Source of the DNA: an uncultured Planctomycetia bacterium
GTDB lineage: Bacteria > Omnitrophota > Gorgyraeia > 2-02-FULL-51-18
Direction of reading: 5' to 3'
NCBI GenBank assembly: GCA_964373505.1
Contig: CAYJVC010000004.1
Location: 5,916-69,915, forward strand
Length of the DNA: 64,000 nucleotides
Positions 58 through 58,546 of this stretch are shown here, piece by piece. Position numbers and translations under genes: made by a program. The notes beneath the pieces are model-generated. The model did not search any database. It saw only the letters and a program-made list of their open reading frames with translations, and had not been told where the DNA came from. Numbering within the stretch: the stretch's first letter is position 1; each line of letters opens with the position of its first letter.

Positions 58-1140
58 TTATTCGATCTCGACGACGGAGTCGAGCCCGCCGTAAGGATTG
101 GGTTCCAAGTGATCGTTGAAAGGGTCGGTGGTCCACTGGCCATCCACAACAAATTTATAGCGGTATTTTCCGGGGTCCAGGAAAACTCTCTTTTGCCACA
201 ACCCTTCCTCCGTTCTCCAGAGGAGGGATTCTTGGGATACCCGCCAGTGGTTGAAGTCGCCTACCAGGTGCACTTCCTTGGCGTCCACCGCTTTCACGAC
301 AAAGTCTTTGATGCGGTTCGAAGCCAGATCGAACCGCGCGCCATCGACCTTAATGTCCAAAGATGCTTCACCCGCGATGCGTTCCAAAAGTTCTTGCGTA
401 AGCGCAAGGTAATCCTGAGCGCCTTTGGAACGGAGGTTGTATTTTAATACCGACCGGCCCTTGGCCTGGGACTCCCGGACGGAAACGGTCTGACGGATCG
501 GGCGGGACAGGATGTGTTCGCCGAAGGAATCGCCGATCTCGCTGAGCATATGCTTCGCGAATTTCGTGCGCATGTCCACCAGGGTCGGCAACGCCCAAAC
601 GCGCGGCGTGTGCTGGAGTTTTACGCGGATAAGCTCGACCATGCTGAGGAGCTTGCTCACTCCCATCAAAGAGAATGAGCCCAGCTCAATGGGCACGACG
701 AGGGTCTGCGAGGCTCTGAGCGCATTGAACGTCAGAAAACCCAAACTGGGCGGGCAATCGATCACCACGTACTCGTAGGGAAATGAAAGCGTCCGGAGGA
801 GGCTGTAAAGCTTGGAGACCGACTCGTCCTTGTTCGTGAATTCCTGCTCGATCGTGCTTAGCAGGAGGTGCGACGGGGCCAGATCCAGCTGAGCATCGAT
901 CGGGAGTATGACGTCTTCCAAAAAATGCTTCCGCCGTTCGGGCTGCTCGGTCAGGACGTTGTAGATGGAGTTTTCCAGTTTATCGCTGCGAACGCCGAGC
1001 CCGAACGTCGCGTGCGCCTGGGGATCGAGGTCGATCAAAAGGCTCTTTTTGCCGAGGTGCGCCAGACTCGCCGCGATGTTGATCGCGGACGTTGTCTTGC
1101 CGCACCCCCCTTTTTGATTGGATAGGGCGATGACGTGCAT
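58..1140 (-). CDS. ParA/MinD-family P-loop ATPase fused to a C-terminal CBM48/AMPK-beta-type glycogen-binding domain
   Basis: 360-aa ORF with deviant Walker A KGGCGKTT at the N-terminus. The C-terminal ~75 aa (VHLVGDFNHWR...YRYKFVVDGQWTTDP...) matches the AMPK-beta GBD / CBM48 fold. Confidence 0.8.
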   Translation of the reverse strand: MHVIALSNQKGGCGKTTSAINIAASLAHLGKKSLLIDLDPQAHATFGLGVRSDKLENSIYNVLTEQPERRKHFLEDVILPIDAQLDLAPSHLLLSTIEQEFTNKDESVSKLYSLLRTLSFPYEYVVIDCPPSLGFLTFNALRASQTLVVPIELGSFSLMGVSKLLSMVELIRVKLQHTPRVWALPTLVDMRTKFAKHMLSEIGDSFGEHILSRPIRQTVSVRESQAKGRSVLKYNLRSKGAQDYLALTQELLERIAGEASLDIKVDGARFDLASNRIKDFVVKAVDAKEVHLVGDFNHWRVSQESLLWRTEEGLWQKRVFLDPGKYRYKFVVDGQWTTDPFNDHLEPNPYGGLDSVVEIE

Positions 1141-3572: not shown

Positions 3573-3635
3573 TAATAAAAAATCCTTTCTACTTTGCCAT
3601 CAATGAGTTACGTAAATTATGGAAGAATTATAATC

Positions 3636-4658
3636 TTATTTGAAGCGGCTGTCAATGATGAGGCGGTTGTTTCTTAGCCGGATGCAGACAAAGCCGGGAA
3701 GATGCGTCTCAAGCAAGGGCTTATGCCCTGGCCGCAACATGTCAGCGACGGCCGCAAGGTGGGAAAACCCCACGCGCCGAGTGTCCCCTTTCACTTGGGT
3801 GAGCGCGCGGAGGATCACCTCTCTTTGAATAGCCGGGTGATAGCGTTGGAGCTTTTTTACGTGAAGGGTAGCCCGGCGTTTTGATCTTGTGCGGATCCGG
3901 CAAGCTTGAAGGGCGATACTTGAAATTCCGTCCAAACAATCCTGGATTTCCTGGCTGACCCGTTGGAGACTTGCCAAAGCGCTTTTGATGTTGGGGTTGA
4001 ATTCATGTTCAAGAACATGGAGCAAGCGGCGCCGAACGCGATTTCTTAAAAATGTCGTGTCGCGATTCGTTCTGTCGATGCAGAAGCGCAGTCCGTTTTT
4101 TCTTAAAAAACGGACCAGGGCACTTTTTTCAACATCCAGAAGAGGCCTCACCACCGCGAACCGGCCCTGGGCGCGTTTGTAGGGAATTCCCGACAGCCCT
4201 TTGATGCCCGAGCCTCGGATGATGCGCAAGAGCACGGTTTCGGCCTGGTCGTCGCGCGTGTGGGCGGTCGCGATGCTTTGGCAGCCGAAACGGCCGGCGA
4301 TTTTCTCAAAAAAACGGTAGCGTTCGATGCGGCCCGCTTCTTCGAGAGAGCGCCCGAGGCGCTTGGCGATCTCCTTAAGCTTAATTCTTTTGATCCGGAA
4401 CGGCAAACCGAGCTTTTCACAGCTCTGCCGGACAAGCGCTTCATGGCGTTTCGCCTGTTGAGGCCAAAGGCCGTGATTCACATGGGCCACGACGAGTTTC
4501 AGTGAGTATTTTTTCTGAAGCGCCAGGAGGATCCTCAAAAGCGCGATCGAATCAGGCCCGCCGGAAACGGCCAATACGATCGCGTCGTTTTTGTGGAACA
4601 GCGCGTGACGCTTACGGGTGAGCTCGACGGTTTCGAGTATTTTCTTGATGGACTTCAA
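3636..4658 (-). CDS. tilS: tRNA(Ile)-lysidine synthetase
   Basis: PP-loop SGGPDS (LAVSGGPDSIALL) and a TilS-like length of 340 aa. Confidence 0.85.
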   Translation of the reverse strand: MKSIKKILETVELTRKRHALFHKNDAIVLAVSGGPDSIALLRILLALQKKYSLKLVVAHVNHGLWPQQAKRHEALVRQSCEKLGLPFRIKRIKLKEIAKRLGRSLEEAGRIERYRFFEKIAGRFGCQSIATAHTRDDQAETVLLRIIRGSGIKGLSGIPYKRAQGRFAVVRPLLDVEKSALVRFLRKNGLRFCIDRTNRDTTFLRNRVRRRLLHVLEHEFNPNIKSALASLQRVSQEIQDCLDGISSIALQACRIRTRSKRRATLHVKKLQRYHPAIQREVILRALTQVKGDTRRVGFSHLAAVADMLRPGHKPLLETHLPGFVCIRLRNNRLIIDSRFK

Positions 4659-10447: not shown

Positions 10448-11698
10448 TCACCATTTTTCAAGAGCGCGAAGCGTTTTTTCGAATTCGCACGCCGTGTGGG
10501 AACCGGAAATGAAGCTCGTTTCAAACGCCGACGGCGGCACGTAAATCCCATATTCTAGCATCTTATGAAAAAATTTCCTGAATTCTTTTCTATCGGTTTT
10601 CATGACATCGCGAAAATGGACCGGTTGCCGAGCGCTGCAAAAGACCGTGAACATGGAGCCGAGGCTTTGGATCACCGCTTTTTTCTTTCGTCTGCGCAGC
10701 AGGACCCTCGCCTCTTTCAGGAAGGCCTTGGCGCTTTGGCCGAGAGCGGCATAGAAGGGCTTCGAGAGCCTGGAAAGCACCGACCGGCCGGCGACCATGG
10801 AAAGAGGGTTGCCCGAAAGCGTCCCCGCCTGATAAACCGGGCCTGCCGGCGAAAGCGCGTTCATGATCTCTTCCCGGCCGCCAAAGGCGCCGACCGGAAG
10901 CCCGCCGCCGATGATCTTTCCGAGTATCGTCAGATCCGGCTCGATGCCGTAGAGGTGTTGCGCGCCGCCGTAGCCGACGCGAAAGCCCGTGATCACCTCA
11001 TCGAAGATGAGAACCGCCCCCGCTTTTTTTGTTTCGCGTCTCAATCGACTCAAAAATTCTTTTTTAGCCGGGACCAGACCCATATTCGCGGCGACGGGTT
11101 CAACGATGGCACAGGCGATGTCCCGCGCGTTTTTAAAAAAGGCGGAGAGCTGGTCGGAATTATTGTATTCGAGCACCGTGGTCAGGCCGGCCAGTTCCTC
11201 CGGAACGCCGGCCGAATCGGGCGAGCCGAAAGTGGCAAGTCCGCTTCCCGCCTTCACGAGCAGGCTGTCGGCGTGGCCGTGGTAGCAGCCTTCGAATTTC
11301 ACGAGCCGCTTTCGGCCGGTGAATCCGCGCGCGAGCCTCACGGCGCTCATGACGGCCTCCGTGCCGGAACTTGTGAACCTTATTTTTTTGAGCGAGCCGA
11401 AGGCTTTTTGGATCTCTTTGGCCAGCGCCGTTTCGTATTCGGTGGCGGTGCCGAAGCTCGTGCCTCTCGAAGCCTGTTCCCGTATCGCTTTTGAAGTTTC
11501 TTCATCGGCATGGCCGAGAAGGATCGCGCCCCAGGACAGGCAATAATCAATGAGGCGTTTTCCGCCGTTGTCGAAGAGATACGGCCCCAGTCCCTGCCGC
11601 ATAAAAACAGGCTCCCCACCGACGGCCCTGAAGGCACGGACGGGGCTGTTGACGCCGCCGGCGATGCACCGCCGGGCTTGGCTCCAGGCGCGGCTCAC
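10448..11698 (-). CDS. hemL: glutamate-1-semialdehyde 2,1-aminomutase
   Basis: 416 aa with GGVNSPVRAF and LIFDEVITGFRVGYGGAQ motifs. It is class III aminotransferase-like and uses a GTG start. Confidence 0.9.
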   Translation of the reverse strand: MSRAWSQARRCIAGGVNSPVRAFRAVGGEPVFMRQGLGPYLFDNGGKRLIDYCLSWGAILLGHADEETSKAIREQASRGTSFGTATEYETALAKEIQKAFGSLKKIRFTSSGTEAVMSAVRLARGFTGRKRLVKFEGCYHGHADSLLVKAGSGLATFGSPDSAGVPEELAGLTTVLEYNNSDQLSAFFKNARDIACAIVEPVAANMGLVPAKKEFLSRLRRETKKAGAVLIFDEVITGFRVGYGGAQHLYGIEPDLTILGKIIGGGLPVGAFGGREEIMNALSPAGPVYQAGTLSGNPLSMVAGRSVLSRLSKPFYAALGQSAKAFLKEARVLLRRRKKKAVIQSLGSMFTVFCSARQPVHFRDVMKTDRKEFRKFFHKMLEYGIYVPPSAFETSFISGSHTACEFEKTLRALEKW

Positions 11699-11814
11699 CC
11701 CACCCCCTGCTTTCTTCCGCCATCCATAGTTTCAATCCCACGATTGGCGGAATGATTCGTCAAAGACGAATCAAAAAATCCGCGGGATTTTTTAGAAGCA
11801 GGGGGTGGGGTCAT
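11695..11814 (-). repeat. family-A palindromic intergenic element (copy a) with 39-aa linker micro-ORF MTPPPASKK...RKQGVG
   Basis: Arms CCCCACCCCCTGCTT / AAGCAGGGGGTGGGG. The micro-ORF ATG overlaps the hemB TGA (ATGA) and its TGA overlaps the hemL GTG (GTGA). Confidence 0.75.
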
Positions 11815-17934: not shown

Positions 17935-18809
17935 CGTTTTTTATTTAAAGAACCGACTATCTCCGGGACGAGTTCTTCCCAGCCGATGGCCATGAGATGG
18001 ATGCCCTGCACGTGCGGTTGGATGGCTTCTATCGTTTCACAGGCGATCGCCGCGCACGCTTTCTTCGCATCCGCCGCGTCCCCAAGCCTTTTTATCATTT
18101 CCTTGGGAATAAAAATTCCCGGGATCTTTTCGTTCATGAAGATGGCCATCTTCGCGGATTTCAGAAGAATAATGCCGGCCAGGATCGGCGTGTTAAATCC
18201 CTCCGAGCGGTAGCGGTCAATGAACTTTTTGAACCGCGCCAGATCGAAGACACCCTGAGTTTGAAAAAAATCTGCGCCGTTTTCTACTTTTTTTTTGGTT
18301 TTCGCGATCTCAACCTCGAGGTTATCCACGCAAGGGTTCATCGCCGCGCCCACCGAAAAACGCGGCGCGCCGTCGAGTTTATGACCCGCCATGTCGAACC
18401 CCGCCCCCATTTTTTTAATGACTGAAATAAAATCGGCCGAGTCCACATCGAAGACGGGTTTCGCTTCCGGGTGGTCGCCGATCGTGATAGGATCGCCGCT
18501 TAAGACCAGTACGTGGGATATCCCCAGCACCGATGCCGACAGAAGATCGGATTGGAGTGCCAACCGGTTTTTGTCGCGGCAGGTCATCTGCATGATCGGC
18601 TCGATGCCGAAATCCTTCAAGAGGTGACAGGCCGCAATGGAACCCAATTTCATCAACGCGCTTTGCTGGTCGGTCACGTTGGCCGCGTGCACGTGGTTCT
18701 TCAAGTAAGCGGCCTGTTTAAAAAACGGGGCAAGGTTTGTGCCCTTGGGAGGGCCGAGCTCCGCCGTTACGACAAACTCTGATTCCTTTAAGTTTTCCAC
18801 TAGCTGCAT
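17931..18809 (-). CDS. metF: 5,10-methylenetetrahydrofolate reductase (MetF family)
   Basis: 292 aa with an MTHFR-like N-terminus (VTAELGPPKGT...) and a TIM-barrel signature. Confidence 0.7.
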   Translation of the reverse strand: MQLVENLKESEFVVTAELGPPKGTNLAPFFKQAAYLKNHVHAANVTDQQSALMKLGSIAACHLLKDFGIEPIMQMTCRDKNRLALQSDLLSASVLGISHVLVLSGDPITIGDHPEAKPVFDVDSADFISVIKKMGAGFDMAGHKLDGAPRFSVGAAMNPCVDNLEVEIAKTKKKVENGADFFQTQGVFDLARFKKFIDRYRSEGFNTPILAGIILLKSAKMAIFMNEKIPGIFIPKEMIKRLGDAADAKKACAAIACETIEAIQPHVQGIHLMAIGWEELVPEIVGSLNKKR

Positions 18810-25960: not shown

Positions 25961-27954
25961 ACGTTGACGCTTTTTTCTTTCTCCAGCTTTTTTTGAATGG
26001 ATTTGATCTGGTCGCGCAAAAGGATCGCCCGTTCGAACTGGAGGTTGTGCGCCGCCTCCTCCATCTCGGCCTCGAGATCGCTTAAGACCTGCAGGACATC
26101 CCCGACCCCCTCCGGAAGCCCCGCCGCCTCCTTCACGATCTCCCGCGCTTTCTTAATGGCCTCGATCCCCTCCCTTATTTCTTTCCGGATGGTCGTGGGT
26201 GTGATGCGATGCTTTTTGTTGTACTCCGCTTGCAGCTTGCGGCGGCGTGTCGTTTCCTGGATCATCTTTCGCATGGACTCCGTCACCGTGTCGGCGTACA
26301 GGATGACCTGGCCGCGGACGTGCCGCGCCGCTCGGCCCGCGACCTGGATCAGGGAGGTTTGGCTTCTCAAAAAGCCTTCCTTGTCCGCATCGAGCACGAC
26401 GACCAGCGAAACTTCCGGCAGGTCAATGCCTTCCCTTAAAAGATTGATCCCCACGAGGCAATCGAATTTTCGAAGCCGCAGGTCCCGCAGGATCTCAACG
26501 CGCTCGATCGCGTCGATCTCAGAGTGGAGGTATTTTACGCGGATGTCCGCCGTTTTCAGGTAATCCGCAAGTTCCTCGGCCATGCGTTTCGTGAGCGTGG
26601 TGACGATCACACGCTCTTTGTCCCTCGCGCGTTTTTTTACCTCTTCCATGAGATCGTCGATCTGGCCCCGCGTGGGCCGCACCTCCACCGGCGGGTCGAG
26701 GAGCCCCGTCGGCCGGATGAGCTGCTCCACGATGCGGGCCGATCTCCTGAGCTCGTAATCGGACGGTGTCGCGGACATGAACACGAGCTGTTTGGCGAAC
26801 GCTTCAAATTCTTCGAATCTCAAAGGCCGGTTGTCGAGCGCCGACGGAAGCCGGAAACCGTACTCCACGAGCGTTTCTTTGCGGGCACGGTCGCCGAAAT
26901 ACATGCCGCGGATCTGCGGGATCGTGATGTGTGATTCGTCGATCACCGTCAGAAAATCCTCGGGAAAATAATCCATGAGGCAATAGGGGCGCGACCCCGG
27001 CGGGCGCCCCGTGAGGGTGCGGGAATAATTCTCTATCCCTGAGCAAAAACCGAGCTCCCGCATCATTTCCATGTCGTAACGCGTCCTCTGCTCAAGACGT
27101 TGGGCCTCCACGAGCTTATTTTGCGATCCCAGTTCCCTCAAGCGCTCCTCGAGTTCTTTTTCTATGCCCACGAGCGCTTGTTCAAGCCGCGTCTGGGTGG
27201 TCACAAAGTGCTTGGCGGGATAGATTGCGCCGGATTCGAGCGACTGAAGCGCTTTTCCTGTCAGCGGATCGATACGCGAGAGCCTTTTTATTTCCTCCCA
27301 TTCGTATTCGATCCGGATCGCGGTCTCCTCATAGGCGAGAAACACCTCCACCACGTCCCCCCGGACCCGGAAAGCGCCGCGCTTGAAATCCACATCGTTT
27401 CTCTGGTACTGGATATCCACGAGTTTTTTTAAAAGTTCCTCCCGCGGAAGGCGCCGGCCGAGCTTAAGAAAAACAAGCATTTCCGAGTACTCCGCCGGCG
27501 AGCCCAATCCGTAGATCGCGGACACGGACGCGACCACAAGGCAGTCGCGGCGTGACAGGAGCGAACTTGTCGCGCGAAGCCGGAGCCTGTCGATGTCTTC
27601 ATTGATCGAAGAATCTTTTTCAATGTAAGTGTCGGTCGTCGGAATATAAGCCTCCGGCTGATAATAGTCGTAATAACTTACGAAGTACTCCACCGCGTTT
27701 TCGGGGAAGATCTTCTTGAATTCACTGTAAAGCTGAGCGGCCAGAGTCTTGTTGTGGGACAAGACGAGCGTCGGACGGCTTAAGTTCGCGATCACGTGGG
27801 CCATCGTGAAAGTTTTGCCGCTGCCGGTGACGCCCAGAAGCGTCTGGGCACGCTCGCCGGCCAGGAGGCCCTGCGTTAGTTTTTCGATGGCCTGCGGCTG
27901 GTCCCCCTTCGGGGTCATTTTAGACTGTATTTTAAAGTTCATACTCCGCGTCAC
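25957..27954 (-). CDS. uvrB: excinuclease ABC subunit B
   Basis: 665 aa with [14 protein letters not shown] Walker A, GDQPQAI, and a C-terminal UvrB/UvrC interaction region. Confidence 0.95.
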
Positions 27955-27968
27955 CCGCGAATGTCACG

Positions 27969-28833: not shown

Positions 28834-28871
28834 TGACTTCGACGGGTCCTGCCGCTTCGGCTCGAAGTCAA
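28834..28871 (-). repeat. short family-B hairpin (copy B1) between valS and nadC
   Basis: TTGACTTCGACGGGTCCTGCCGCTTCGGCTCGAAGTCAA shares the core TTCGACGGGTCCTGCCGCT with copies at 50377-50487 and 57685-57828. Confidence 0.6.
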
Positions 28872-34490: not shown

Positions 34491-35632
34491 TTCAAAAAAT
34501 GCTCCATGAGCGGGTGTCCTTCAGGGAATTGAAGTTTGCTTTGAGCCGCCGTTTTTTCGTTGAAGCCCGGGTGCTTTTCCGCGGCGAATCCGTGCCCCGC
34601 GATGAGGAACGGCACCGGCCCGTGAGCAGCCGAACGGCTCGCGGAGGATGTCGCCGTGTCCGTGCAAACGAGCAAACGGTGATCCCCCAGGTTTTCCAGG
34701 CACTTCGTGGCAATTCCCACAACCTGCGCATCAAAGCGTTCGATCAGACGAATTTTTGTTTTCCAGGGATCGGTTTCGGGTTGTACCTGGTCTGCGGCCA
34801 TGTACACGAACGTGAGTTCATGGTTTCGGAGCGCCTTTTCAAGGTCGTCGACGACCTTGAAACCCAGGGACAGTCCGAGCCCCTTGGCAAAATCAGCCTG
34901 AGAAAATACGGCGCCGTCCACGCCAAAGCGATCCTTGAAACGGGGAAGCCGGGGCCGGCGGCCCTGCCCCCAGGGCCAGATCATGTTCGCCGGATTTTCC
35001 CCGAGGTCTATCCTGACCCGGTTGATCTCATGGTGCTCCAGAACGGTCTTGGATTTTTCCATGAGACTTGTGATGACCTCGGCGTCTTCCCCCTTCGGGA
35101 GCACCTTGGCCATTTTCTGACCGATCGCCCGTGAAGGCGGAACGCACTCCAGCTCATCGAGACTTTCGGCCTTTTCAGGGTCACGGATCATCAGGATATT
35201 TTTGTAGCCTTCTCTCGGATAGAACTTGATCTGCGGGCTTGAGAGTTTTTTATTGAGTTCCTCGATCAAGAGTGAGGACTCCTCGGGCGGAATGAAGCCT
35301 GCGCTTACATCTGCCAGAAGCCCGTCCGAAACCGTGACAAGGTCGCAGCGGAACGCGATCTCATTGTCGTCCTGGGAGATACCGGCTGCGGCGGCCTCAA
35401 GCGGCGCAACCCCCGTGTAAAATTCTTCCGGAGGGTAACCCAGAATGGCCATCGCCGCGACGTCGCGTGTTAGGGCCAATTTAGGCGACGTGAAGATCGC
35501 CGAACCCACACGGCCTTTTTTTGCCAATTGATGCAAAAATGGGGCTTTTGCCAGTTCCATCGGCGTGCGGCCGCCCAGAGCCTCGACCGGATCGTCCGTG
35601 GCCGCTTCGCAAACCAACACCGCGTATTTCAC
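34487..35632 (-). CDS. cofactor-independent phosphoglycerate mutase (archaeal ApgM type); by context a candidate non-orthologous homoserine kinase
   Basis: 381-aa ApgM-family protein that starts with GTG. It is embedded between lysC and thrC with hom upstream, and no classical thrB is present in the block. Confidence 0.6.
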   Translation of the reverse strand: MKYAVLVCEAATDDPVEALGGRTPMELAKAPFLHQLAKKGRVGSAIFTSPKLALTRDVAAMAILGYPPEEFYTGVAPLEAAAAGISQDDNEIAFRCDLVTVSDGLLADVSAGFIPPEESSLLIEELNKKLSSPQIKFYPREGYKNILMIRDPEKAESLDELECVPPSRAIGQKMAKVLPKGEDAEVITSLMEKSKTVLEHHEINRVRIDLGENPANMIWPWGQGRRPRLPRFKDRFGVDGAVFSQADFAKGLGLSLGFKVVDDLEKALRNHELTFVYMAADQVQPETDPWKTKIRLIERFDAQVVGIATKCLENLGDHRLLVCTDTATSSASRSAAHGPVPFLIAGHGFAAEKHPGFNEKTAAQSKLQFPEGHPLMEHFLK

Positions 35633-35715
35633 CCCATCCCCTCTTTCTGAGGCGCCAACGGCGCCTCGGCGTTGTACGCTGAAATTGAAAAATTCAAAAG
35701 AGGGGATGGGGTCAT
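35629..35715 (-). repeat. family-A palindromic element (copy c) with micro-ORF MTPSPLLNFSISAYNAEAPLAPQKEGMG
   Basis: Arms CCCCATCCCCTCTTTT / AAAGAGGGGATGGGG. It makes an ATGA overlap with the thrC stop and a GTGA overlap with the apgM-like start. Confidence 0.75.
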
Positions 35716-48151: not shown

Positions 48152-48938
48152 GGATGGCCTTTGCGAACGGGCGCACAAATTTTTTTGCGAACGCCTCGGC
48201 GTTCAAATGAAGATGCGCGGCCAGCGTGTTTACCAGGGCGCTGCCTACGATGACGCCGTCGGCGATCTTTGACACCTGCTTCGCACGGGCAGGATCTGAG
48301 ACGCCGAAACCCACGCACACCGGGAGTGCCGTCATTTTCTTGATAGCGGAAATATTTTTACGGACGCTCTCCGTCACAAGGTGATGGGCGCCGGTTACGC
48401 CGGTCAGGGAAACGTAGTAAATAAAACCCCTCGAGGCTCCTACGATAAGCCGGCGCCGTGCCCCGGTGCTTGTGGGCGCCAAAAGATACACCAGGTCCAC
48501 GCCGTTCCTGCGCATGAGCGCGCGGATGTCTTTTTCCTCGTCCGGCGGTAGGTCCGGCACTATCAAACCGTCCACGCCGGAGTCGCGCGCGGCCTTCGCG
48601 AAATGAGCCGGGCCCATCGCGAGGATCGGATTGAGATAGCTCATGAGGAGGATCGGGGTGCTTGATTTCCTGCGGGCTTTTTTCACAAGCGCTAAAATTT
48701 TACGCAGCGTCGTGTGTCGCTTGAGCGACCGGTTGGAAGCCTCCTGGATGACGGGCCCGTCCGCCAAGGGGTCTGAAAAAGGCACCCCCAGCTCAATGAG
48801 GTCCACCCCCGCCTTCTCCAATGTGCCGATCAACTCCCCGGTCATTTTGAGGCTTGGGTCGCCGGCCGTGATAAAAACGACAAGCGCCTTTTTCCCTTCC
48901 TTTTTCAGCGCTTTGAATTTTTTTTCTATACGATTCAC
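48144..48938 (-). CDS. trpA: tryptophan synthase alpha chain
   Basis: 264 aa that starts with GTG and is typical of TrpA (LVVFITAGDPSL...). Confidence 0.9.
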   Translation of the reverse strand: MNRIEKKFKALKKEGKKALVVFITAGDPSLKMTGELIGTLEKAGVDLIELGVPFSDPLADGPVIQEASNRSLKRHTTLRKILALVKKARRKSSTPILLMSYLNPILAMGPAHFAKAARDSGVDGLIVPDLPPDEEKDIRALMRRNGVDLVYLLAPTSTGARRRLIVGASRGFIYYVSLTGVTGAHHLVTESVRKNISAIKKMTALPVCVGFGVSDPARAKQVSKIADGVIVGSALVNTLAAHLHLNAEAFAKKFVRPFAKAIHD

Positions 48939-49021
48939 CCCACCCCCTCCTTTTGAGACAACGATGTTGTCTCAATGCTATGCATCAAAATTGAAAATTT
49001 TAAAGGAGGGGGTGGGGTCAT
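48935..49021 (-). repeat. family-A palindromic element (copy e) with micro-[31 protein letters not shown]
   Basis: Arms CCCCACCCCCTCCTTT / AAAGGAGGGGGTGGGG. It makes an ATGA overlap with the trpB stop and a GTGA overlap with the trpA start. The AAGGAGG Shine-Dalgarno site lies in the 3' arm. Confidence 0.8.
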
Positions 49022-50223
49022 AGATGCAAAACCTTTGAAACGCTTTCCATGTCTTTGTCGCCCCGTCCCGAGAGGCAAACCACGATCACTTCTTTCTTTT
49101 TAAAGCGTGATTTGTGTTTGGCCAGATACCCGAACACGTGCGCGGTTTCAAGCGCCGGAATGATGCCCTCGGTTTGGCTTAAAATTTTCATCCCCAAGAG
49201 CGCTTCCTTGTCGGTCGCCGATACGTATTCCGCGCGGCGGATCTTTTTCAGGTACGCATGTTCAGGGCCTACGCCGGGATAGTCGAGACCCGCCGAGATC
49301 GAGTGCGCGAGTTTCACCTGTCCGTCCCGGTCCTGCAACACCTCGCTTTTTGACCCGTGCAGGACGCCGATCTTGCCCAAAGACAGTGTCGCCGAATGGC
49401 GGTCCGTGCCCAGGCCATGGCCTGCCGCCTCCACACCGATAAGTTTCGTTCTGCTTTTAAGGAAAGGATAAAAAAGGCCGATGCTGTTCGACCCGCCGCC
49501 CACGCAGGCGATGCAGGTGTCGGGCGAACGAACCCCCAGAGGCCTTAACTGCGCAATCGTCTCTTTTCCGATCACCGATTGAAAATCCCTCACCATCACG
49601 GGGTACGGATGAGGCCCGATCACCGAGCCAATAATGTAATGCGTGTCCTTCACATGAGTGACCCAGTCGCGGATCGCCTCGTTCACGGCGTCTTTCAAGG
49701 TCCGCGAGCCGGATCTTACAGGGATCACGCGCGCGCCGAGGAGTTTCATGCGGAATACGTTGAGCGCCTGCCGCTCGATGTCCACCTGCCCCATGTAAAC
49801 ATCGCAGGGAATACCGAAAAGAGCGCACACGGTCGCGGTCGCAACGCCATGCTGCCCGGCTCCCGTTTCGGCGATCACGCGCTTTTTGCCCATGCGAAGC
49901 GTCAAAAGCGCCTGCCCAATCGTGTTGTTGATCTTGTGGGCGCCGGTGTGGAGAAGGTCCTCCCGCTTAAGATAGACTTTTTTCACGCCGAGATATTCGG
50001 CCAGGTGCCGGGCTTCGGTGAGCGCAGTCGGGCGACCGGCAAAATTCCTCAGGTAATGGCTGACTTCCTTTTTGAATTTCGGATCGAGCCGAGTGCTCCG
50101 GTAAGCTTTCTCAAGCTCTTCCAGCGCGGCCATCAAGGTTTCGGGCACGTACTTCCCTCCGTACGGCCCGAAGTGGCCGCGCGAGTCCGGAACTTTGGTT
50201 CGGCGGTTACGCTGATCTGGCAT
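49018..50223 (-). CDS. trpB: tryptophan synthase beta chain
   Basis: 401 aa with a PLP-binding region HTGAHKINN. Confidence 0.95.
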
Positions 50224-50920
50224 TTTGGATGAATTCTTTCAAAAGTTCATGGTCCTTGATCCCCGGGCGCTTTTCCACGCCGCTCGAGACGTCCACGCCG
50301 TAGGGTGAAAGTGTCTGAATGGCTTTCCGGACGTTGCTGGGACGAAGCCCCCCTGAAATAATCACTGGTTTTAGTCGATCTCGAAGGTCACGGGTCCTGC
50401 CGCTCCGAGAGCCCATTTTTTGCAAGTGTTTCCCTTGCAAAAAATGGGCGCCCCTCTCCGCGTCACCCGTGACCTTCGAGATCTCGGCTGACAACATTTT
50501 CCAATTGAAATTTTGCCCGCTTCCTCCGTATCGGCCTGTTACTTGTGTGTCAAATAAATAGGCGTCCGCGGGAAAGCCGAGAAGATTTTCCAAATGAAAC
50601 CCTTCATCGACGCGAAAAGCCTTTATGACTTTACAACAACGGAGCTTTTTTGTATAGGCCCGGGTTTCGTCCCCGTGAAGCTGCACCGCGCTTAAGCCGC
50701 AGAGCCGGGCTATCATCTCCACTTTCCTGGGGTTTTCGTTCACGAAAACCCCCACCGTCGTGACAAAGGGTCCGAGTTTTCCTATGATCTCTTGTGCCCT
50801 TTTTGGGGTCAGCCGCCGCGGGCTTTTGGCGAATACGAACCCGAGCGCGTCGGCCCCACACCCAAGTGCGGCGCGCGCGTCGGGCAAATTCGTGATCCCG
50901 CAGATCTTAACCCTGACCAT
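50207..50920 (-). CDS. trpF: phosphoribosylanthranilate isomerase carrying an in-frame ~37-aa insertion derived from a family-B palindromic element
   Basis: VKICGIT...[16 protein letters not shown] then an extra [36 protein letters not shown] before the conserved PVIISGGL. Confidence 0.8.
50377..50487 (-). repeat. family-B palindromic element (copy B2) inserted in-frame within trpF
   Basis: CGATCTCGAAGGTCACGGGTCCTGCCGCTCCGAG...CGCGTCACCCGTGACCTTCGAGATCTCG with ~20-bp perfect inverted arms. Length is a multiple of 3. Confidence 0.75.
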
Positions 50921-51698
50921 AGCCTGTTCCGCGAAGTTCCGAAAGCGCCTTTTTGACGTTCTTCTTCGTGAGAAGGCTCTCTCCCACCAGCACGGCCCGG
51001 ACCCCGAGTTTTTTTAAAAACAAGATCTCCCCATGGTTTTGTATCCCGCTTTCCGACACCACGCAGAGAGCTCGAGGAATATTTTTAACTAATTTTTCGG
51101 TCGTGCGAATGTCCACCGTGAAAGTTTTCAGGTTCCGGTTGTTGATGCCGATGAGCTTTGCGTGGATCGCCAGGGTTTTTTTAAGTTCCGCTTGCGTGTG
51201 CACTTCCACGAGCGCGTCGAGCCCGAGCCGTCGGGCCAAATTCCGGAAGCGCCTCAGCTTTTCACGGGTCAAGAGGGCCGCGATGAGTAAGACCGCGTCG
51301 GCGCCGAGGAGCCTTGATTCGTAGATCTGGTACTCATCGATGAGGAAGTCCTTCCTTAGAATGGGGAGCGTGACGGCTCTCCGTACTTTTTTGAGATCGA
51401 CGGCACCCCCGCCGAAAAATTTTTTGTCCGTCAGAACGGAAAGTGCCCGCGCCCCCGCTTCCTTGTAGCTCTGGGCGATCTTTACGGGATCAAAAGCGGT
51501 CCGTAATACCCCTTGGGAGGGCGATCTTCTCTTGATCTCGGCGATCACCGAGATCCCGTTCCCTTTCCGCAGCGCCTGGAGGAAACGAGGTCTCTTTCTT
51601 TTAAGACGTAAGACCTCCTTTTTTAGGACGGCGAGCGGCTTGATCCTTTTAAGCGAGGCAACTTCCTTTTTTTTATTAGCTATGATCTTGCCGAGCAT
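50907..51698 (-). CDS. trpC: indole-3-glycerol phosphate synthase
   Basis: VIAEIKRRSPSQG motif, 263 aa. Confidence 0.9.
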   Translation of the reverse strand: MLGKIIANKKKEVASLKRIKPLAVLKKEVLRLKRKRPRFLQALRKGNGISVIAEIKRRSPSQGVLRTAFDPVKIAQSYKEAGARALSVLTDKKFFGGGAVDLKKVRRAVTLPILRKDFLIDEYQIYESRLLGADAVLLIAALLTREKLRRFRNLARRLGLDALVEVHTQAELKKTLAIHAKLIGINNRNLKTFTVDIRTTEKLVKNIPRALCVVSESGIQNHGEILFLKKLGVRAVLVGESLLTKKNVKKALSELRGTGYGQG

Positions 51699-52717: not shown

Positions 52718-53286
52718 TATTGGGTCAGACGGAGGAAATTTTTCAGGATCTCTTTGCCGGACTGCGTCAGGATGGATTCAGGATGGAACTGGACTCCGTA
52801 AACCGGGTATCGTTTGTGTTGAAGGCCCATGATCTCCTTTTCCCGGGTCTCGGCCGTGATCTCCAGCTCTTTCGGCAGGCTTTTTCTTTCGACCAAAAGC
52901 GAGTGGTACCTTGTACCGATGAACGGATTATCGATATTTTTGAAGATCCCCTTCCCGGTGTGGTGAATCCGCGAGGTTTTTCCGTGCATGAGCCTGGCCG
53001 CACCCACCACTTTTCCGCCGTAGGCTTCGCCTATGCACTGATGCCCCAGGCAGACGCCGAGGATCGGGACCTTGTCGCCGAGCTTTTGGATGATCTGGAG
53101 GGAAATGCCGGCCTGCTTCGGGTTGCCGGGGCCCGGCGAGATCACGATGCGGCTTGGTTTCATTTTTTTGATCCGGGGTATCGTGATTTCGTCATTCCTG
53201 AAAATTTTAAGTTCCTGCCCCATTTCGCCCAGGTACTGCACGAGGTTATAAGTGAACGAGTCATAATTGTCGATCATCAGGATCAC
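52717..53286 (-). CDS. trpG: anthranilate synthase component II (glutamine amidotransferase)
   Basis: [18 protein letters not shown]...GVCLGHQ. I place the start at GTG, overlapping the micro-ORF TGA; the track ORF reads on into the repeat. Confidence 0.85.
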
Positions 53287-53438
53287 CCCATCCCCTCCTT
53301 TTGAGACGACATTGCCCCATCCCCCGTTTGAATGATTGCTTCGCAATCAGTTCGCGGAGCGAACCAAACAGGGGATGGGGTTGTCGTCCCAATGCTTTGC
53401 ATAAGAATTGAAAATTCTAAAGGAGGGGATGGGGTCAT
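53283..53438 (-). repeat. family-A element (copy f) with nested internal duplicate; 51-aa micro-ORF MTPSPPLEFSILMQSIGTTTPSPVWF...SSQKEGMG
   Basis: Outer arms CCCCATCCCCTCCTTT / AAAGGAGGGGATGGGG plus an inner CCCCATCCCCTGTTTG / CAAACGGGGGATGGGG pair. ATGA overlap with the trpE stop and GTGA overlap with the trpG start. Confidence 0.75.
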
Positions 53439-56271: not shown

Positions 56272-56984
56272 ACTTGAATAGCTTCTTTTAGCGTGAATTT
56301 GTTCTCATAAAGCGCTTTGCCTATCACGACCCCCCGGATGTTCTTTTTCTTGAGTTTCATCAGCGCTTCGAGGTCCTTCAGCGAACTCACGCCCCCGGAG
56401 GCGATAAGGTCGAGGTTCACGGCTTCACTGGCGTTTTTTATCTCTTTGATGTTCAACCCGGAAAGAGCCCCGTCCTTTGAAATATCCGTGTAGATCACGG
56501 TTTGCCCGCCGAGCTTTTCAAATTCTTTGATGAATTGGACGGCATTTATTTTTGTGACCTTTGTCCAGCCGTCCGTCGCGATGAGCCCGTCCCGTGCATC
56601 GACGCCGATGATCGCCTTCTCCTTAAGCTCGGACACGAGCTCTTTTATGAATCCTCTGTCGAGACACGCCTGGGTGCCGAAAATGACCCACCCGGCGCCC
56701 ATCGCCAGATACCTAGCCGCGGTTTGGAGGCTGCGGATGCCGCCTCCCACCTCGACCGGGGTCCGCACGGCGTTTAAGATCCGCTCGATCGTCTTTATGT
56801 TTTTCGGCTCGCCTTTCAGCGCCCCGTCCAGGTCCACCACGTGGATCCTGGACGCCCCCTCCTCTTCAAAGCGCCTGGCGATATCTTCCGCCTTTTCCGA
56901 ATAGATCTTTTCGGCCTTGAAGTCTCCTTGGAAAAGACGGACAACCTTACCGTCCTTGAGGTCGATCGCGGGGATAGGGATCAC
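56253..56984 (-). CDS. hisA: 1-(5-phosphoribosyl)-5-[(5-phosphoribosylamino)methylideneamino]imidazole-4-carboxamide isomerase
   Basis: Starts with GTG: (M)[16 protein letters not shown]... Confidence 0.9.
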
Positions 56985-57067
56985 CCCGCCCCCTCTTTCC
57001 GAGGCGCCAGCGGCGCCTCGACGTTGCAGGTTGAAATTAAAAATTTTGAAAGAGGGGGTGGGGTCAT
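56981..57067 (-). repeat. family-A palindromic element (copy g) with micro-[31 protein letters not shown]
   Basis: Arms CCCCACCCCCTCTTTC / GAAAGAGGGGGCGGGG. Its ATG lies 6 nt after the hisH TAG stop and its TGA overlaps the hisA GTG. Confidence 0.75.
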
Positions 57068-57073
57068 GCGAGG

Positions 57074-57688
57074 CTACTTAAGACGGACGAAGTTCTTGAC
57101 GATCCGAAGGCCCGCGTTCTGGCTTTTCTCGGGATGGAACTGGGTCGCAAAGATATTATCGCGCCAGACGCTGGAGCAGAATCCAAACCCGTAATCGGTG
57201 GTGGAGGAGACCCAGCTTGTGTCCTGGGGGGCGCCGTAGAACGAATGCACAAAATAGAAAAAATCGCCCGGACGGATCCCCTGGAAAAGCGGACAGTCTT
57301 TTTTTTTGAGGTTCAACGTGTTCCAGCCCATGTGCGGGATCTTGAGTCTTACTCGGAATTTTTTCACCTTTCCGCGGATGATCCCAAACCCGGCGGACTT
57401 GCGCTTGCCTTCATTTTCCTCGCTCTCCTCGAATAAAAGCTGCAGCCCCAAGCACAAGCCAAGATAGGGCGTGCCCCCAAGCACTTTTTTACGGATTACG
57501 TCCACCAGCCTCCGCTTCTCAAGCTCGCGGACAGCCGCCGTAAAGGCACCGACACCGGGCAGCACGATCATTTCGGCGTTGGCGATGTCGGATCGGGACG
57601 ACGTGATCCTGGGTTTGGCCCCGCCCTTCTCGAACGCCTTCTCGACGCTGCGGAGATTGCCCATCCCATAATCCACAATAGCAATCAT
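57074..57688 (-). CDS. hisH: imidazole glycerol phosphate synthase glutamine amidotransferase subunit
   Basis: MIAIVDYGMGNLRSV...GVCLGLQ. Confidence 0.95.
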   Translation of the reverse strand: MIAIVDYGMGNLRSVEKAFEKGGAKPRITSSRSDIANAEMIVLPGVGAFTAAVRELEKRRLVDVIRKKVLGGTPYLGLCLGLQLLFEESEENEGKRKSAGFGIIRGKVKKFRVRLKIPHMGWNTLNLKKKDCPLFQGIRPGDFFYFVHSFYGAPQDTSWVSSTTDYGFGFCSSVWRDNIFATQFHPEKSQNAGLRIVKNFVRLK

Positions 57689-57828
57689 TCGACAAACCAG
57701 TCTGGATTCGACGGGTCCTGCCGCTGCGGCAGCCCCAATGGTTCCCGCGTCACTGCGGAGCGCTGCGAGCGAATGGGGCGCCCCGCCTCCGCGTCACCCG
57801 TCGAATCCAAAATCTCTGCGAAAATCAT
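57685..57828 (-). repeat. family-B palindromic element (copy B3) filling the hisB-hisH gap, spanned by a 47-aa linker ORF MIFAEILDSTGDAEAG...NPDWFVE
   Basis: Arms GATTCGACGGGTCCTGCCGC / CGCGTCACCCGTCGAATC. The linker ATG overlaps the hisB TGA (ATGA) and the linker TGA overlaps the hisH ATG (ATGA). Confidence 0.7.
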
Positions 57829-58451: not shown

Positions 58452-58546
58452 GTCAGCCCCGTTTTTTCACCCCATCCCCTATTTCGTGACGCAAAGCGTC
58501 ACCTTTTGATTTGCTTTGCAAATCAAGAAATAGGGGATGGGGTCAT
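58452..58546 (-). repeat. family-A palindromic element (degenerate copy h); micro-ORF truncated to MTPSPIS
   Basis: Arms CCCCATCCCCTATTTC / GAAATAGGGGATGGGG with a different internal loop. ATGA overlap with the hisD stop. hisB uses its own ATG 20 nt downstream. Confidence 0.65.

Follow-up and report, generated by a model that had tools for sequence, protein, structure and literature searches.

Why should a gene for phosphoribosylanthranilate isomerase (PRAI), trpF, carry within its coding sequence a near-perfect palindrome of about 100 nt and be read through it without a break? The question is raised by a 64,000-nt stretch of DNA, here called the window, from an uncultured bacterium placed by GTDB in the Omnitrophota (GenBank assembly GCA_964373505.1, contig CAYJVC010000004.1, positions 5,916 to 69,915 of the forward strand). 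An earlier reading made without database searches, the sequence-only reading, had reported the palindrome, and both the sequence and the translation that it quoted are present as given, the inverted repeat spanning positions 50377-50483. We consider it quite probable that this 107-nt segment is one copy of a hairpin repeat family, that it entered an ancestral trpF gene in the codons for the loop that joins helix α6 to strand β7 in the encoded barrel, and that copies of the family that are tolerated in frame persist and are translated. The family is apparently undescribed so far, and the conservation of its core across phyla is the main fact that goes beyond what the earlier reading had claimed.

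By its full-length domain and its conserved catalytic and phosphate-binding residues, the window TrpF belongs to the PRAI family. The Pfam PRAI domain (PF00697) matches it with E = 3e-43 over profile positions 1-193 of 193 (residues 4-233), and in the homologue alignment the family-invariant residues C7, D124, G132/G133/G135, and S189-G190-G191 are all kept; the catalytic roles of the PRAI Cys and Asp are established from the enzyme of T. maritima. The gene is part of a minus-strand operon with the order trpD-trpC-trpF-trpB, in which it overlaps both trpC (50907-51698) and trpB (49018-50223), and the gene order of the operon is identical in two relatives (L002 and L005). In an alignment of the window protein with 14 of its best 120 homologues, the spacing from W to PV is exactly 10 residues in 12 of the 14, as against 44 in the window TrpF. 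Almost all of the best 120 homologues have 200-221 aa, and the orthologues have about 203 aa versus 237 aa here. The extra segment hence corresponds to the palindrome, as had been claimed, but adds 34 aa (102 nt), slightly below the 37 codons of the palindrome and the roughly 37 residues first counted. Alignment with orthologues had been named as the check that could overturn the insertion; the segment is absent from 12 of the 14, so the insertion stands. The reading frame is unbroken on both sides of the element, with no stop and no frameshift. The genome, described earlier as high in GC, is only moderately so (50-59% in 2-kb windows, mostly about 55-57%).

The element is a nested inverted repeat with arms of 50 nt (50377-50426 and 50434-50483) that are 80% complementary and 7 nt apart. 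As single-stranded DNA (ssDNA), the segment 50370-50495 is predicted to fold at -42.5 kcal/mol, as against -15.1 +/- 2.6 in shuffled sequences (z = -10.55; 0 of 200 shuffles as good), and a covariance model of the family, R1, matches positions 50381-50479 with 59.1 bits (E = 4e-12). The left core, CGGGTCCTGCCGC, comprises a CGGGT closing the outer helix P1, a CCT bulge, a G:C pair, a C.T mismatch, and a CGC opening the second helix P2. Beyond this core the P1 arms of the trpF copy form 14 perfect bp, and its distal stem, P3, is a perfect helix of 15 bp. A 14-mer that takes in the left core, CGGGTCCTGCCGCT, occurs at exactly three sites in the window (28843, 50391, and 57712), all on the plus strand, where about 0.0005 exact matches would be expected by chance according to our own arithmetic. 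Two full copies are detected in the window by R1, and there are two partial copies besides. Both of the intergenic copies reported earlier are indeed present, although the full one extends over 57703-57809, not 57685-57828, and the one at 28834-28871 is internally deleted, retaining only its arms, the left core, and TTCGGC. The full intergenic copy matches R1 with 69.6 bits (E = 1.3e-14), and its interior is 60% identical to that of the trpF copy. The outer arms of the three window copies are unrelated in sequence while each pair is complementary, and the cores are common to all three.

Beyond the window, a search of GTDB, with one genome per species, for the pattern CGGGTCCTGCCGC-N(40-70)-CGCGTCACCCG returned at least 115 loci. 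The matches listed include Omnitrophota, Chloroflexota, and several Patescibacteria (Saccharibacteria and Roizman-, Gottesman-, Davies-, Levyi-, Uhr-, and Doudnabacteria), as well as Solirubrobacterales, Conexibacteraceae, and, among the Coxiellales, Coxiella and Rickettsiella; further matches listed come from metagenome-assembled genomes (MAGs) labelled Planctomycetes, Gamma- or Deltaproteobacteria, and Bacillota, and no Rickettsia is among the matches listed. Several single genomes contribute many copies each, with 10 among the retrieved loci of one Omnitrophota MAG, and MHFI01, the genome with the closest TrpF relative (L002), holds a canonical copy elsewhere (L030). R1 recovers 103 copies in 98 loci; the core-to-core length is 64-94 nt and the element as a whole measures 70-110 nt. 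A BLAST search with a canonical copy found no match in 72,556 plasmids or 50,697 phage records, nor did the family pattern match in 2.9 million IMG/VR contigs. With Rfam 15 at the gathering threshold only tRNAs were found in the window and only tRNAs and RNase P RNA in 18 of the loci, and single copies searched at E values up to 10 gave noise only. Literature searches by core sequence returned unrelated primer matches only, and those by keyword found, within the library covered, no described element of this type in Patescibacteria or Omnitrophota. Two further observations concern the surroundings of individual copies. In the Omnitrophota genome JAHFFE01 (L025, L070, and L071) the core lies inside a repeat of about 300 nt that is conserved at three loci, reaches beyond the core by about 30 nt on the upstream and 190 nt on the downstream side, folds with z = -5.2, and has no Rfam match at E values up to 10. 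At an Uhrbacteria locus (L072), a bacterial RNase P RNA gene (2267-2640) lies about 2.7 kb from the element copy, with no overlap.

Read from the CGGGT strand, the elements share one order of parts: a variable arm, the CGGGT:ACCCG helix end, the CCU bulge, the G:C pair, the C.U mismatch, and CGC; P2, consisting of this CGC plus 4-6 variable bp; an internal loop with a C-rich 3' side (RSCCCC); the variable hairpin P3, often with an extra insert closed by GUSC/GSGC; and on the 3' return P2', then CGCG-U-C-ACCCG, and the complementary arm. Across 71 copies, the P1 arm and P2 covary with a score of 0.299, whereas shuffled columns score 0.106 +/- 0.009, with none of 500 as high, and registers slid by 1-3 columns do not exceed 0.138; the arm positions adjoining the core take part in this covariation. 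In diverged copies the core shows compensatory changes (C:G to U:A or G:C, and G:C to C:G), and in three of them the C.U mismatch is reversed to U.C. Because of these compensatory changes and the mismatch swap, the core behaves as a structure constrained in its shape, to judge by the aligned copies. The evidence on which strand is functional is contradictory, in that G.U pairs in the predicted folds favour the element-sense strand (200 versus 134 on its complement) whereas fold energies favour the complement, which is the more stable in 91 of 112 copies. In addition, the GC skew of the flanks on the element-sense strand is positive for 71 copies and negative for 40 (111 copies, from the window and loci of at least 4 kb; p = 0.004); the window's own copies show the opposite skew, lying on the C-rich strand. 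The skew might be linked to the direction of replication. Two loci carry inverted, REPIN-like doublets, L073 at 530-630 (+) / 670-765 (-) and L079 at 3608-3715 (+) / 3729-3833 (-), with members 13-40 nt apart and with a diverged, U.C-swapped core in the second member. Several known structures were considered for the hairpin and dropped: a kink turn, as there are no tandem G.A pairs; a bacterial selenocysteine insertion sequence, as the UGA-containing frame is the avoided one; a bulge-helix-bulge intron, whose geometry is absent; an integron attC site, as there are no R boxes; a fragment of the signal recognition particle RNA; and the hairpin of a diversity-generating retroelement or a retron.

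Table 1. Parts of the trpF hairpin element, its host gene, and the other copies in the window (positions in the window).
Feature	Position	Strand	Basis or remark
Whole hairpin element in trpF	50377-50483 (107 nt)	+ (antisense to trpF)	Inverted repeat, fold, covariance model
Left P1 arm GATCTCGAAGGTCA	50377-50390	+	Pairs with 50470-50483; peculiar to the trpF copy
Left conserved core CGGGTCCTGCCGC	50391-50403	+	Exact in every pattern match by construction
Distal hairpin P3, CCCATTTTTTGCAAG / 7-nt loop / CTTGCAAAAAATGGG	50412-50448	+	Sequence, fold; variable among copies
CGCCCC 3' internal-loop strand, P2 3' strand TCTC, and right core CGCGTCACCCG	50449-50469	+	Family consensus ..GGGGnnCCCCnCnTCGCGTCACCCG
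Right P1 arm TGACCTTCGAGATC	50470-50483	+	Pairs with left arm
trpF (phosphoribosylanthranilate isomerase)	50207-50920	-	Open reading frame list, 237 aa; host gene of the insert
Second full copy, arms TGGATTCGA / TCGAATCCA	57703-57809	+	hisB-hisH spacer, antisense to flanking genes
Internally deleted copy, arms TTGACTTCGA / TCGAAGTCAA around CGGGTCCTGCCGCTTCGGC	28834-28871	+	Between two minus-strand genes
Right-core-only remnant CTCCGCGTCACCCG	27944-27957	+	Spacer of 25 nt, immediately upstream of a minus-strand gene's start codon

Carriage inside genes is a habit of the family rather than a peculiarity of trpF. Frames were counted in 93 copies from low-GC loci, where open reading frame (ORF) calls are reliable, and a copy was taken to be in frame when it lay, stop-free, in a long ORF with at least 40 codons on either side. 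By this count 36 of the 93 copies are in frame, one may split a gene, and the remaining 56 merely abut a long ORF or touch none, being thus mostly intergenic. Host genes verified by translation include tgt and queA in a Nanosyncoccus MAG, ileS (with two copies), a ppsA-like gene, a carbamoyltransferase, glycosyltransferases of families GT2 and GT39, and the PDH E2 gene of Solirubrobacterales. Inside ORFs 25 copies are antisense and 9 sense, and between genes the counts are 25 and 19. The encoded peptides are unrelated to one another (TGDA...GRTR in trpF and three others, GRVTR...RQDPP, TGD...AAGPV, and TGPAA...RVTR), and a protein search with an element-encoded peptide returned no match. Either strand of the element can be the coding one, and at least four frames occur; because both strands and several frames are used, the conservation is placed at the nucleotide level, and the in-frame copies are most likely translated rather than spliced, which is the economical inference from the frame statistics. 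In the GT39 proteins of Roizmanbacteria and their relatives, alignment columns 156-200 show that the loop holding the element in one of them (L050) is occupied in several orthologues by other inserts of 15-40 aa that are unrelated to it, LDTQFF... and IPEFFDSVG... among them; elements of other families may have a hot spot here.

For TrpF the consequences of translation can be gauged from an AlphaFold2 model, run with a 15-sequence alignment. The barrel is modelled confidently (mean predicted local distance difference test [pLDDT] score 84.9, predicted template modelling score 0.82, barrel pLDDT >90), and the insert is placed between helix 140-151 (α6) and strand 186-188 (β7), with a pLDDT of <50 for residues 157-174 and with both arm-encoded stretches modelled as short helices flanking this low-scoring stretch. 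In (βα)8 barrels, the loops that lead from a helix to the next strand sit on the face opposite the active site. The model thus agrees with the earlier suggestion of a surface loop, in that it leaves the barrel intact and shows a low-confidence excursion between α6 and β7, and the 34-residue insert is probably a flexible excursion on the noncatalytic face. Given this placement away from the active site, the enzyme would be expected to tolerate the insert, and for TrpF itself the insertion is probably benign.

The age of the insertion can be approached through the relatives. Among the aligned homologues, only the two closest have extra residues at the TrpF site, 8 in L002 (protein P0003) and 5 in L005 (protein P0002); both are 61-63% identical to the window TrpF by BLASTP, and both have in common with it an EISK-x-T-x-D at the start of the segment. 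In the DNA of L002, about 39 nt align to the 3' part of the element-sense strand, which here comprises the arm GAGATCTCGAAG, a right core that has diverged, and the CCCC tract, and in L005 a weaker alignment of about 30 nt covers the same trpF codons. As both of these nearest relatives have a worn 3' remnant of the element in the same place, an old insertion is more probable than a recent one, and the simplest reading of these alignments would be a single event in a common ancestor, after which two lineages lost parts of the element through in-frame deletion and decay. A second site allows copies to be compared between species. The orthologous PDH E2 site holds a copy in five Solirubrobacterales species (L034, L035, L053, L062, and L113) whose flanks have clearly diverged; compensatory changes distinguish the P2 stems of these copies, and in three copies the apical stems differ in sequence but still pair, two of these stems closing near-identical loops. 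This pattern looks like either overwriting by paralogous copies or strong structural selection.

Taking these findings together, we propose a course of events by which such elements could come to lie in genes. The family is defined at the nucleotide level by the core, that is, the helix end CGGGT/ACCCG, the CCT bulge, the G:C pair, the pyrimidine-pyrimidine mismatch, and CGC/GCG, and some trans-acting protein might recognise the folded strand, which would explain why the core is identical. The copy-specific arms could arise, and this is a guess, from template switching at the hairpin during replication, which would make one flank complementary to the other, or else from the target site. Selection would purge the insertions that break genes, and the survivors would be those with a length that is a multiple of three, free of stops, and located in tolerant loops or linkers, which would then be translated.

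The arms themselves bear on this proposal. Beyond the core they usually extend for 3-5 bp and for up to 25 bp, with the 14 bp of trpF in between, while the interiors within one genome are 84-98% identical. In Roizmanbacteria (e.g., L007, L050b, and L056) and in the Omnitrophota genome JACPAY most copies have arms of unrelated sequence, complementary all the same within each copy; other lineages show part of the arm handed down within a subfamily. No direct target duplications flank the three copies in the window. In the case of GT39, comparison with minimal orthologues gives a net insertion of 84-93 nt, close to the core length (91 nt), and the arms occupy the native length of the loop; the net gain of TrpF exceeds the core by 23 nt, and no single rule emerges from the two cases. 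On a broader view, which we put forward tentatively and think somewhat less probable than not, the elements would form a cross-phylum hairpin class whose bulge-plus-mismatch core is recognised by a widespread enzyme acting on folded ssDNA or RNA, whose copies are kept intact over long periods by selection or conversion and are routinely carried as translated loops in the essential proteins of streamlined bacteria (Patescibacteria and Omnitrophota), and whose arms arise at each insertion by hairpin-driven copying.

Several points weigh against our interpretation of the trpF segment as a translated copy of a spreading repeat. Both of its dynamic parts are deduced from sequence: translation of the insert from the frames, and mobility from the number of copies and from the near-identity of interiors that lie at unrelated sites. 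The sequences adjoining the copies yielded no transposase or other enzyme. An all-against-all BLAST comparison of 1,748 flanking ORFs gave housekeeping clusters only; an apparent enrichment of UvrA near the copies was rejected, being a generic ABC-ATPase cluster; and phmmer searches of six-frame ORFs from the window and 120 loci (about 1 Mb of flanks) for RAYT, the Y1 HUH transposase cognate to REP repeats, and for the IS608 transposase TnpA found none, although this is a weak test. Further, no empty site was recovered in a close relative, the nearest relative for the long-armed GT39 copy being only 56% identical. If the trpF insertion is old, its near-perfect palindrome calls for selection on the hairpin, for conversion from other copies, or for renewed insertion at the same spot. 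The 24 core positions were fixed by the exact-match pattern, so that the true variability of the core is under-sampled. Finally, the identical core across phyla and the persistence at the PDH E2 site fit an element useful to its host at least as well as a purely selfish one.

This last point leads to the alternative that the element is a structured nucleic acid useful to the host, such as an RNA or ssDNA hairpin to which a conserved cellular protein binds, or a catalytic or regulatory RNA; selection would then keep each copy, the one in trpF being a site that by chance falls in coding sequence. Its appeal lies in a core that is identical in several phyla yet absent from the plasmid, phage, and IMG/VR collections, in the strong covariation of the stems with the C.U to U.C swap, in the PDH E2 copy that persists in five species while its flanks diverge, and in a trpF copy that is intact while the sister lineages eroded theirs; the modest excess of G.U pairs on the element-sense strand also tends this way. 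A function at the level of the transcript would, however, be inconsistent with copies in both orientations relative to genes, the complementary strand is usually the more stable, no Rfam family matches even at permissive E values, and some copies are truncated or eroded. Many copies of near-identical interior in one genome are typical of proliferating repeats, and the swapped apical stems of the orthologous copies resemble overwriting by paralogous ones. Weighing the two sides, we regard selection on each copy for host use as unlikely.

It is also conceivable that the segment is an intervening sequence removed after transcription, so that the mature TrpF would have the normal length. A stable hairpin would bring the flanks together, the strong conservation of the core recalls ribozymes, and copies do lie in essential genes of tiny genomes. 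Removal at the RNA level, however, would let two-thirds of the genic copies break the frame, and no frame constraint would be expected; what the low-GC loci show is 36 open-frame copies against one possible split, and we reject the intron-like reading. Copies on either host strand, the lack of a match to any ribozyme or intron family, and the absence of bulge-helix-bulge geometry are further arguments that make it very improbable. Even less credit is due to the notion of a lineage-specific TrpF loop, palindromic by chance or through a local inverted duplication and outside any repeat family: the EISK-x-T-x-D common to the closest relatives and the helices modelled for both arm stretches are in its favour, but the 13-nt and 11-nt cores recur around hairpins at two other sites in the window and in at least 115 loci elsewhere, in unrelated genes and spacers, the extreme fold score and the lack of the segment in most aligned orthologues speak against it, and simple fold-back copying cannot produce an asymmetric core. 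That the segment is an artefact of sequencing or assembly, say a chimeric join or a read folded back on itself, can be put aside almost entirely, for while library artefacts can yield palindromes and the source is a MAG, the identical TrpF protein and element are encoded in the independent Logan assembly ERR3478686 (L001), which makes a single-assembly artefact unlikely, the frame is kept on both sides, as an earlier-proposed check for frameshifts or sequencing errors also confirms, and the same element architecture recurs in many independent assemblies.

Holding, then, to a hairpin repeat family with tolerated in-frame copies, we compared it with described repeats. Rickettsia palindromic elements (RPEs) are palindromic repeats of about 100-150 bp, found mainly in Rickettsia (Ogata et al. 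2000, summarised in PMC10969869 and PMC3733652). Each RPE family encodes one conserved peptide, and in R. conorii the majority of the 44 copies of RPE-1 lie in ORFs (review PMC10969869). Like RPEs, the present elements are hairpin repeats of roughly this size, dispersed in spacers and in frame in unrelated housekeeping genes, at sites predicted to be compatible with the protein fold, with no known transposase; the share of copies in ORFs is similar, 36 of 93 as against most of 44. Unlike them, they encode no conserved peptide and have a GC-rich core identical across phyla, the comparison being one of descriptions only. Thus, the likeness to RPEs drawn by the sequence-only reading holds for the habit of in-frame carriage, but the conserved-peptide feature is lacking and membership is not established.

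Repetitive extragenic palindromic (REP) units are 20-40 nt long, with a single stem of 5-13 bp, a short loop, and at the terminus a GTAG or CGTC tag that is unpaired, and the CGTC-type REPs lack an associated transposase (PMC3733652; PMC3116915). REPs, with their doublets (REPINs), and the present family are alike in being hairpins without target-site duplications that are found in several phyla, sometimes within genes, often as inverted doublets, and sometimes within copy-specific longer palindromes. The right core of the present family also contains CGTC, as in the CGTC-type REPs, but here it is inside the core, across paired positions and the mismatch, and is not a terminal tag; and unlike a REP the element has three helices, a 3-nt bulge, a C-rich internal loop, and no terminal GTAG. 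IS-derived transposable elements of the miniature inverted-repeat type (MITEs), such as Correia elements and QMITE1/QMITE2 of Coxiella burnetii, have conserved terminal inverted repeats and direct target duplications (PMC5896051). The present elements resemble MITEs in being small, noncoding, multicopy stem-loops that can overlap ORFs; in contrast to MITEs, it is their termini that vary and their interior that is conserved, with arms that differ where interiors are >84% identical, and they have no flanking direct repeats. The attC sites of integrons are imperfect hairpins of 50-150 nt that are recognised by their folded structure and that have conserved ends, unpaired or extrahelical bases, and a highly variable distal part. 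The architecture of the present family may be seen as analogous to this, without the R''/R' boxes (RYYYAAC / GTTRRRY), without cassette arrays, and with some copies in ORFs. In sum, the family is RPE-like in its behaviour and overlaps with REP/REPIN, while the defining features of neither are present.

Other palindromic sequences of the window and its relatives deserve mention. The left arm and core start of the full intergenic copy (57703-57716) read CTGGATTCGACGGG, which equals the conserved 5' tRNA-like segment of E. coli tmRNA; an origin from tmRNA or tRNA was dropped, as ARAGORN finds no tmRNA in the window, and the likeness, that of a TCGA palindrome, is probably due to chance. The genes flanking this copy were identified as hisB and hisH by synteny with L002. 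In this nearest relative the hisB-hisH spacer (L002 3440-3610, MHFI01000036.1) holds a different nested palindrome of about 170 nt, which is not recognised by R1 and in which CGGGGAACCTCGGC...GCCGTATCCCGG is faintly core-like; L005 has no spacer between the two genes. The window further contains a second palindromic family (A) between minus-strand genes, at 11697-11811, 35631-35712, 48937-49018, 53282-53438, 56980-57067, and 58469-58543, with half sites near 18398 and 34477. On the mRNA strand it has CCCCAYCCCCUCYUUU after the preceding stop and the complement AAARGAGGGGRUGGGG, with a Shine-Dalgarno-like AAGGAGG, terminating at the next start codon (e.g., after the trpB stop at 49018). From its sequence and position, family A looks like a hairpin repeated between cistrons, where it would sequester the ribosome-binding site.

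Palindromic repeats carried in frame have so far been mainly a curiosity of Rickettsia, and the present family offers new handles on how they spread. A 24-nt core identical in distant phyla is a precise bait for the protein that recognises it, and orthologous copies allow the rates of decay, conversion, and re-insertion to be measured. Copies in essential genes of very small genomes amount to natural insertion scans, recording the tolerance of proteins for 25-35 extra residues. As the element inflates proteins and makes apparent lineage-specific loops, it also matters for the annotation and structure prediction of uncultivated lineages.

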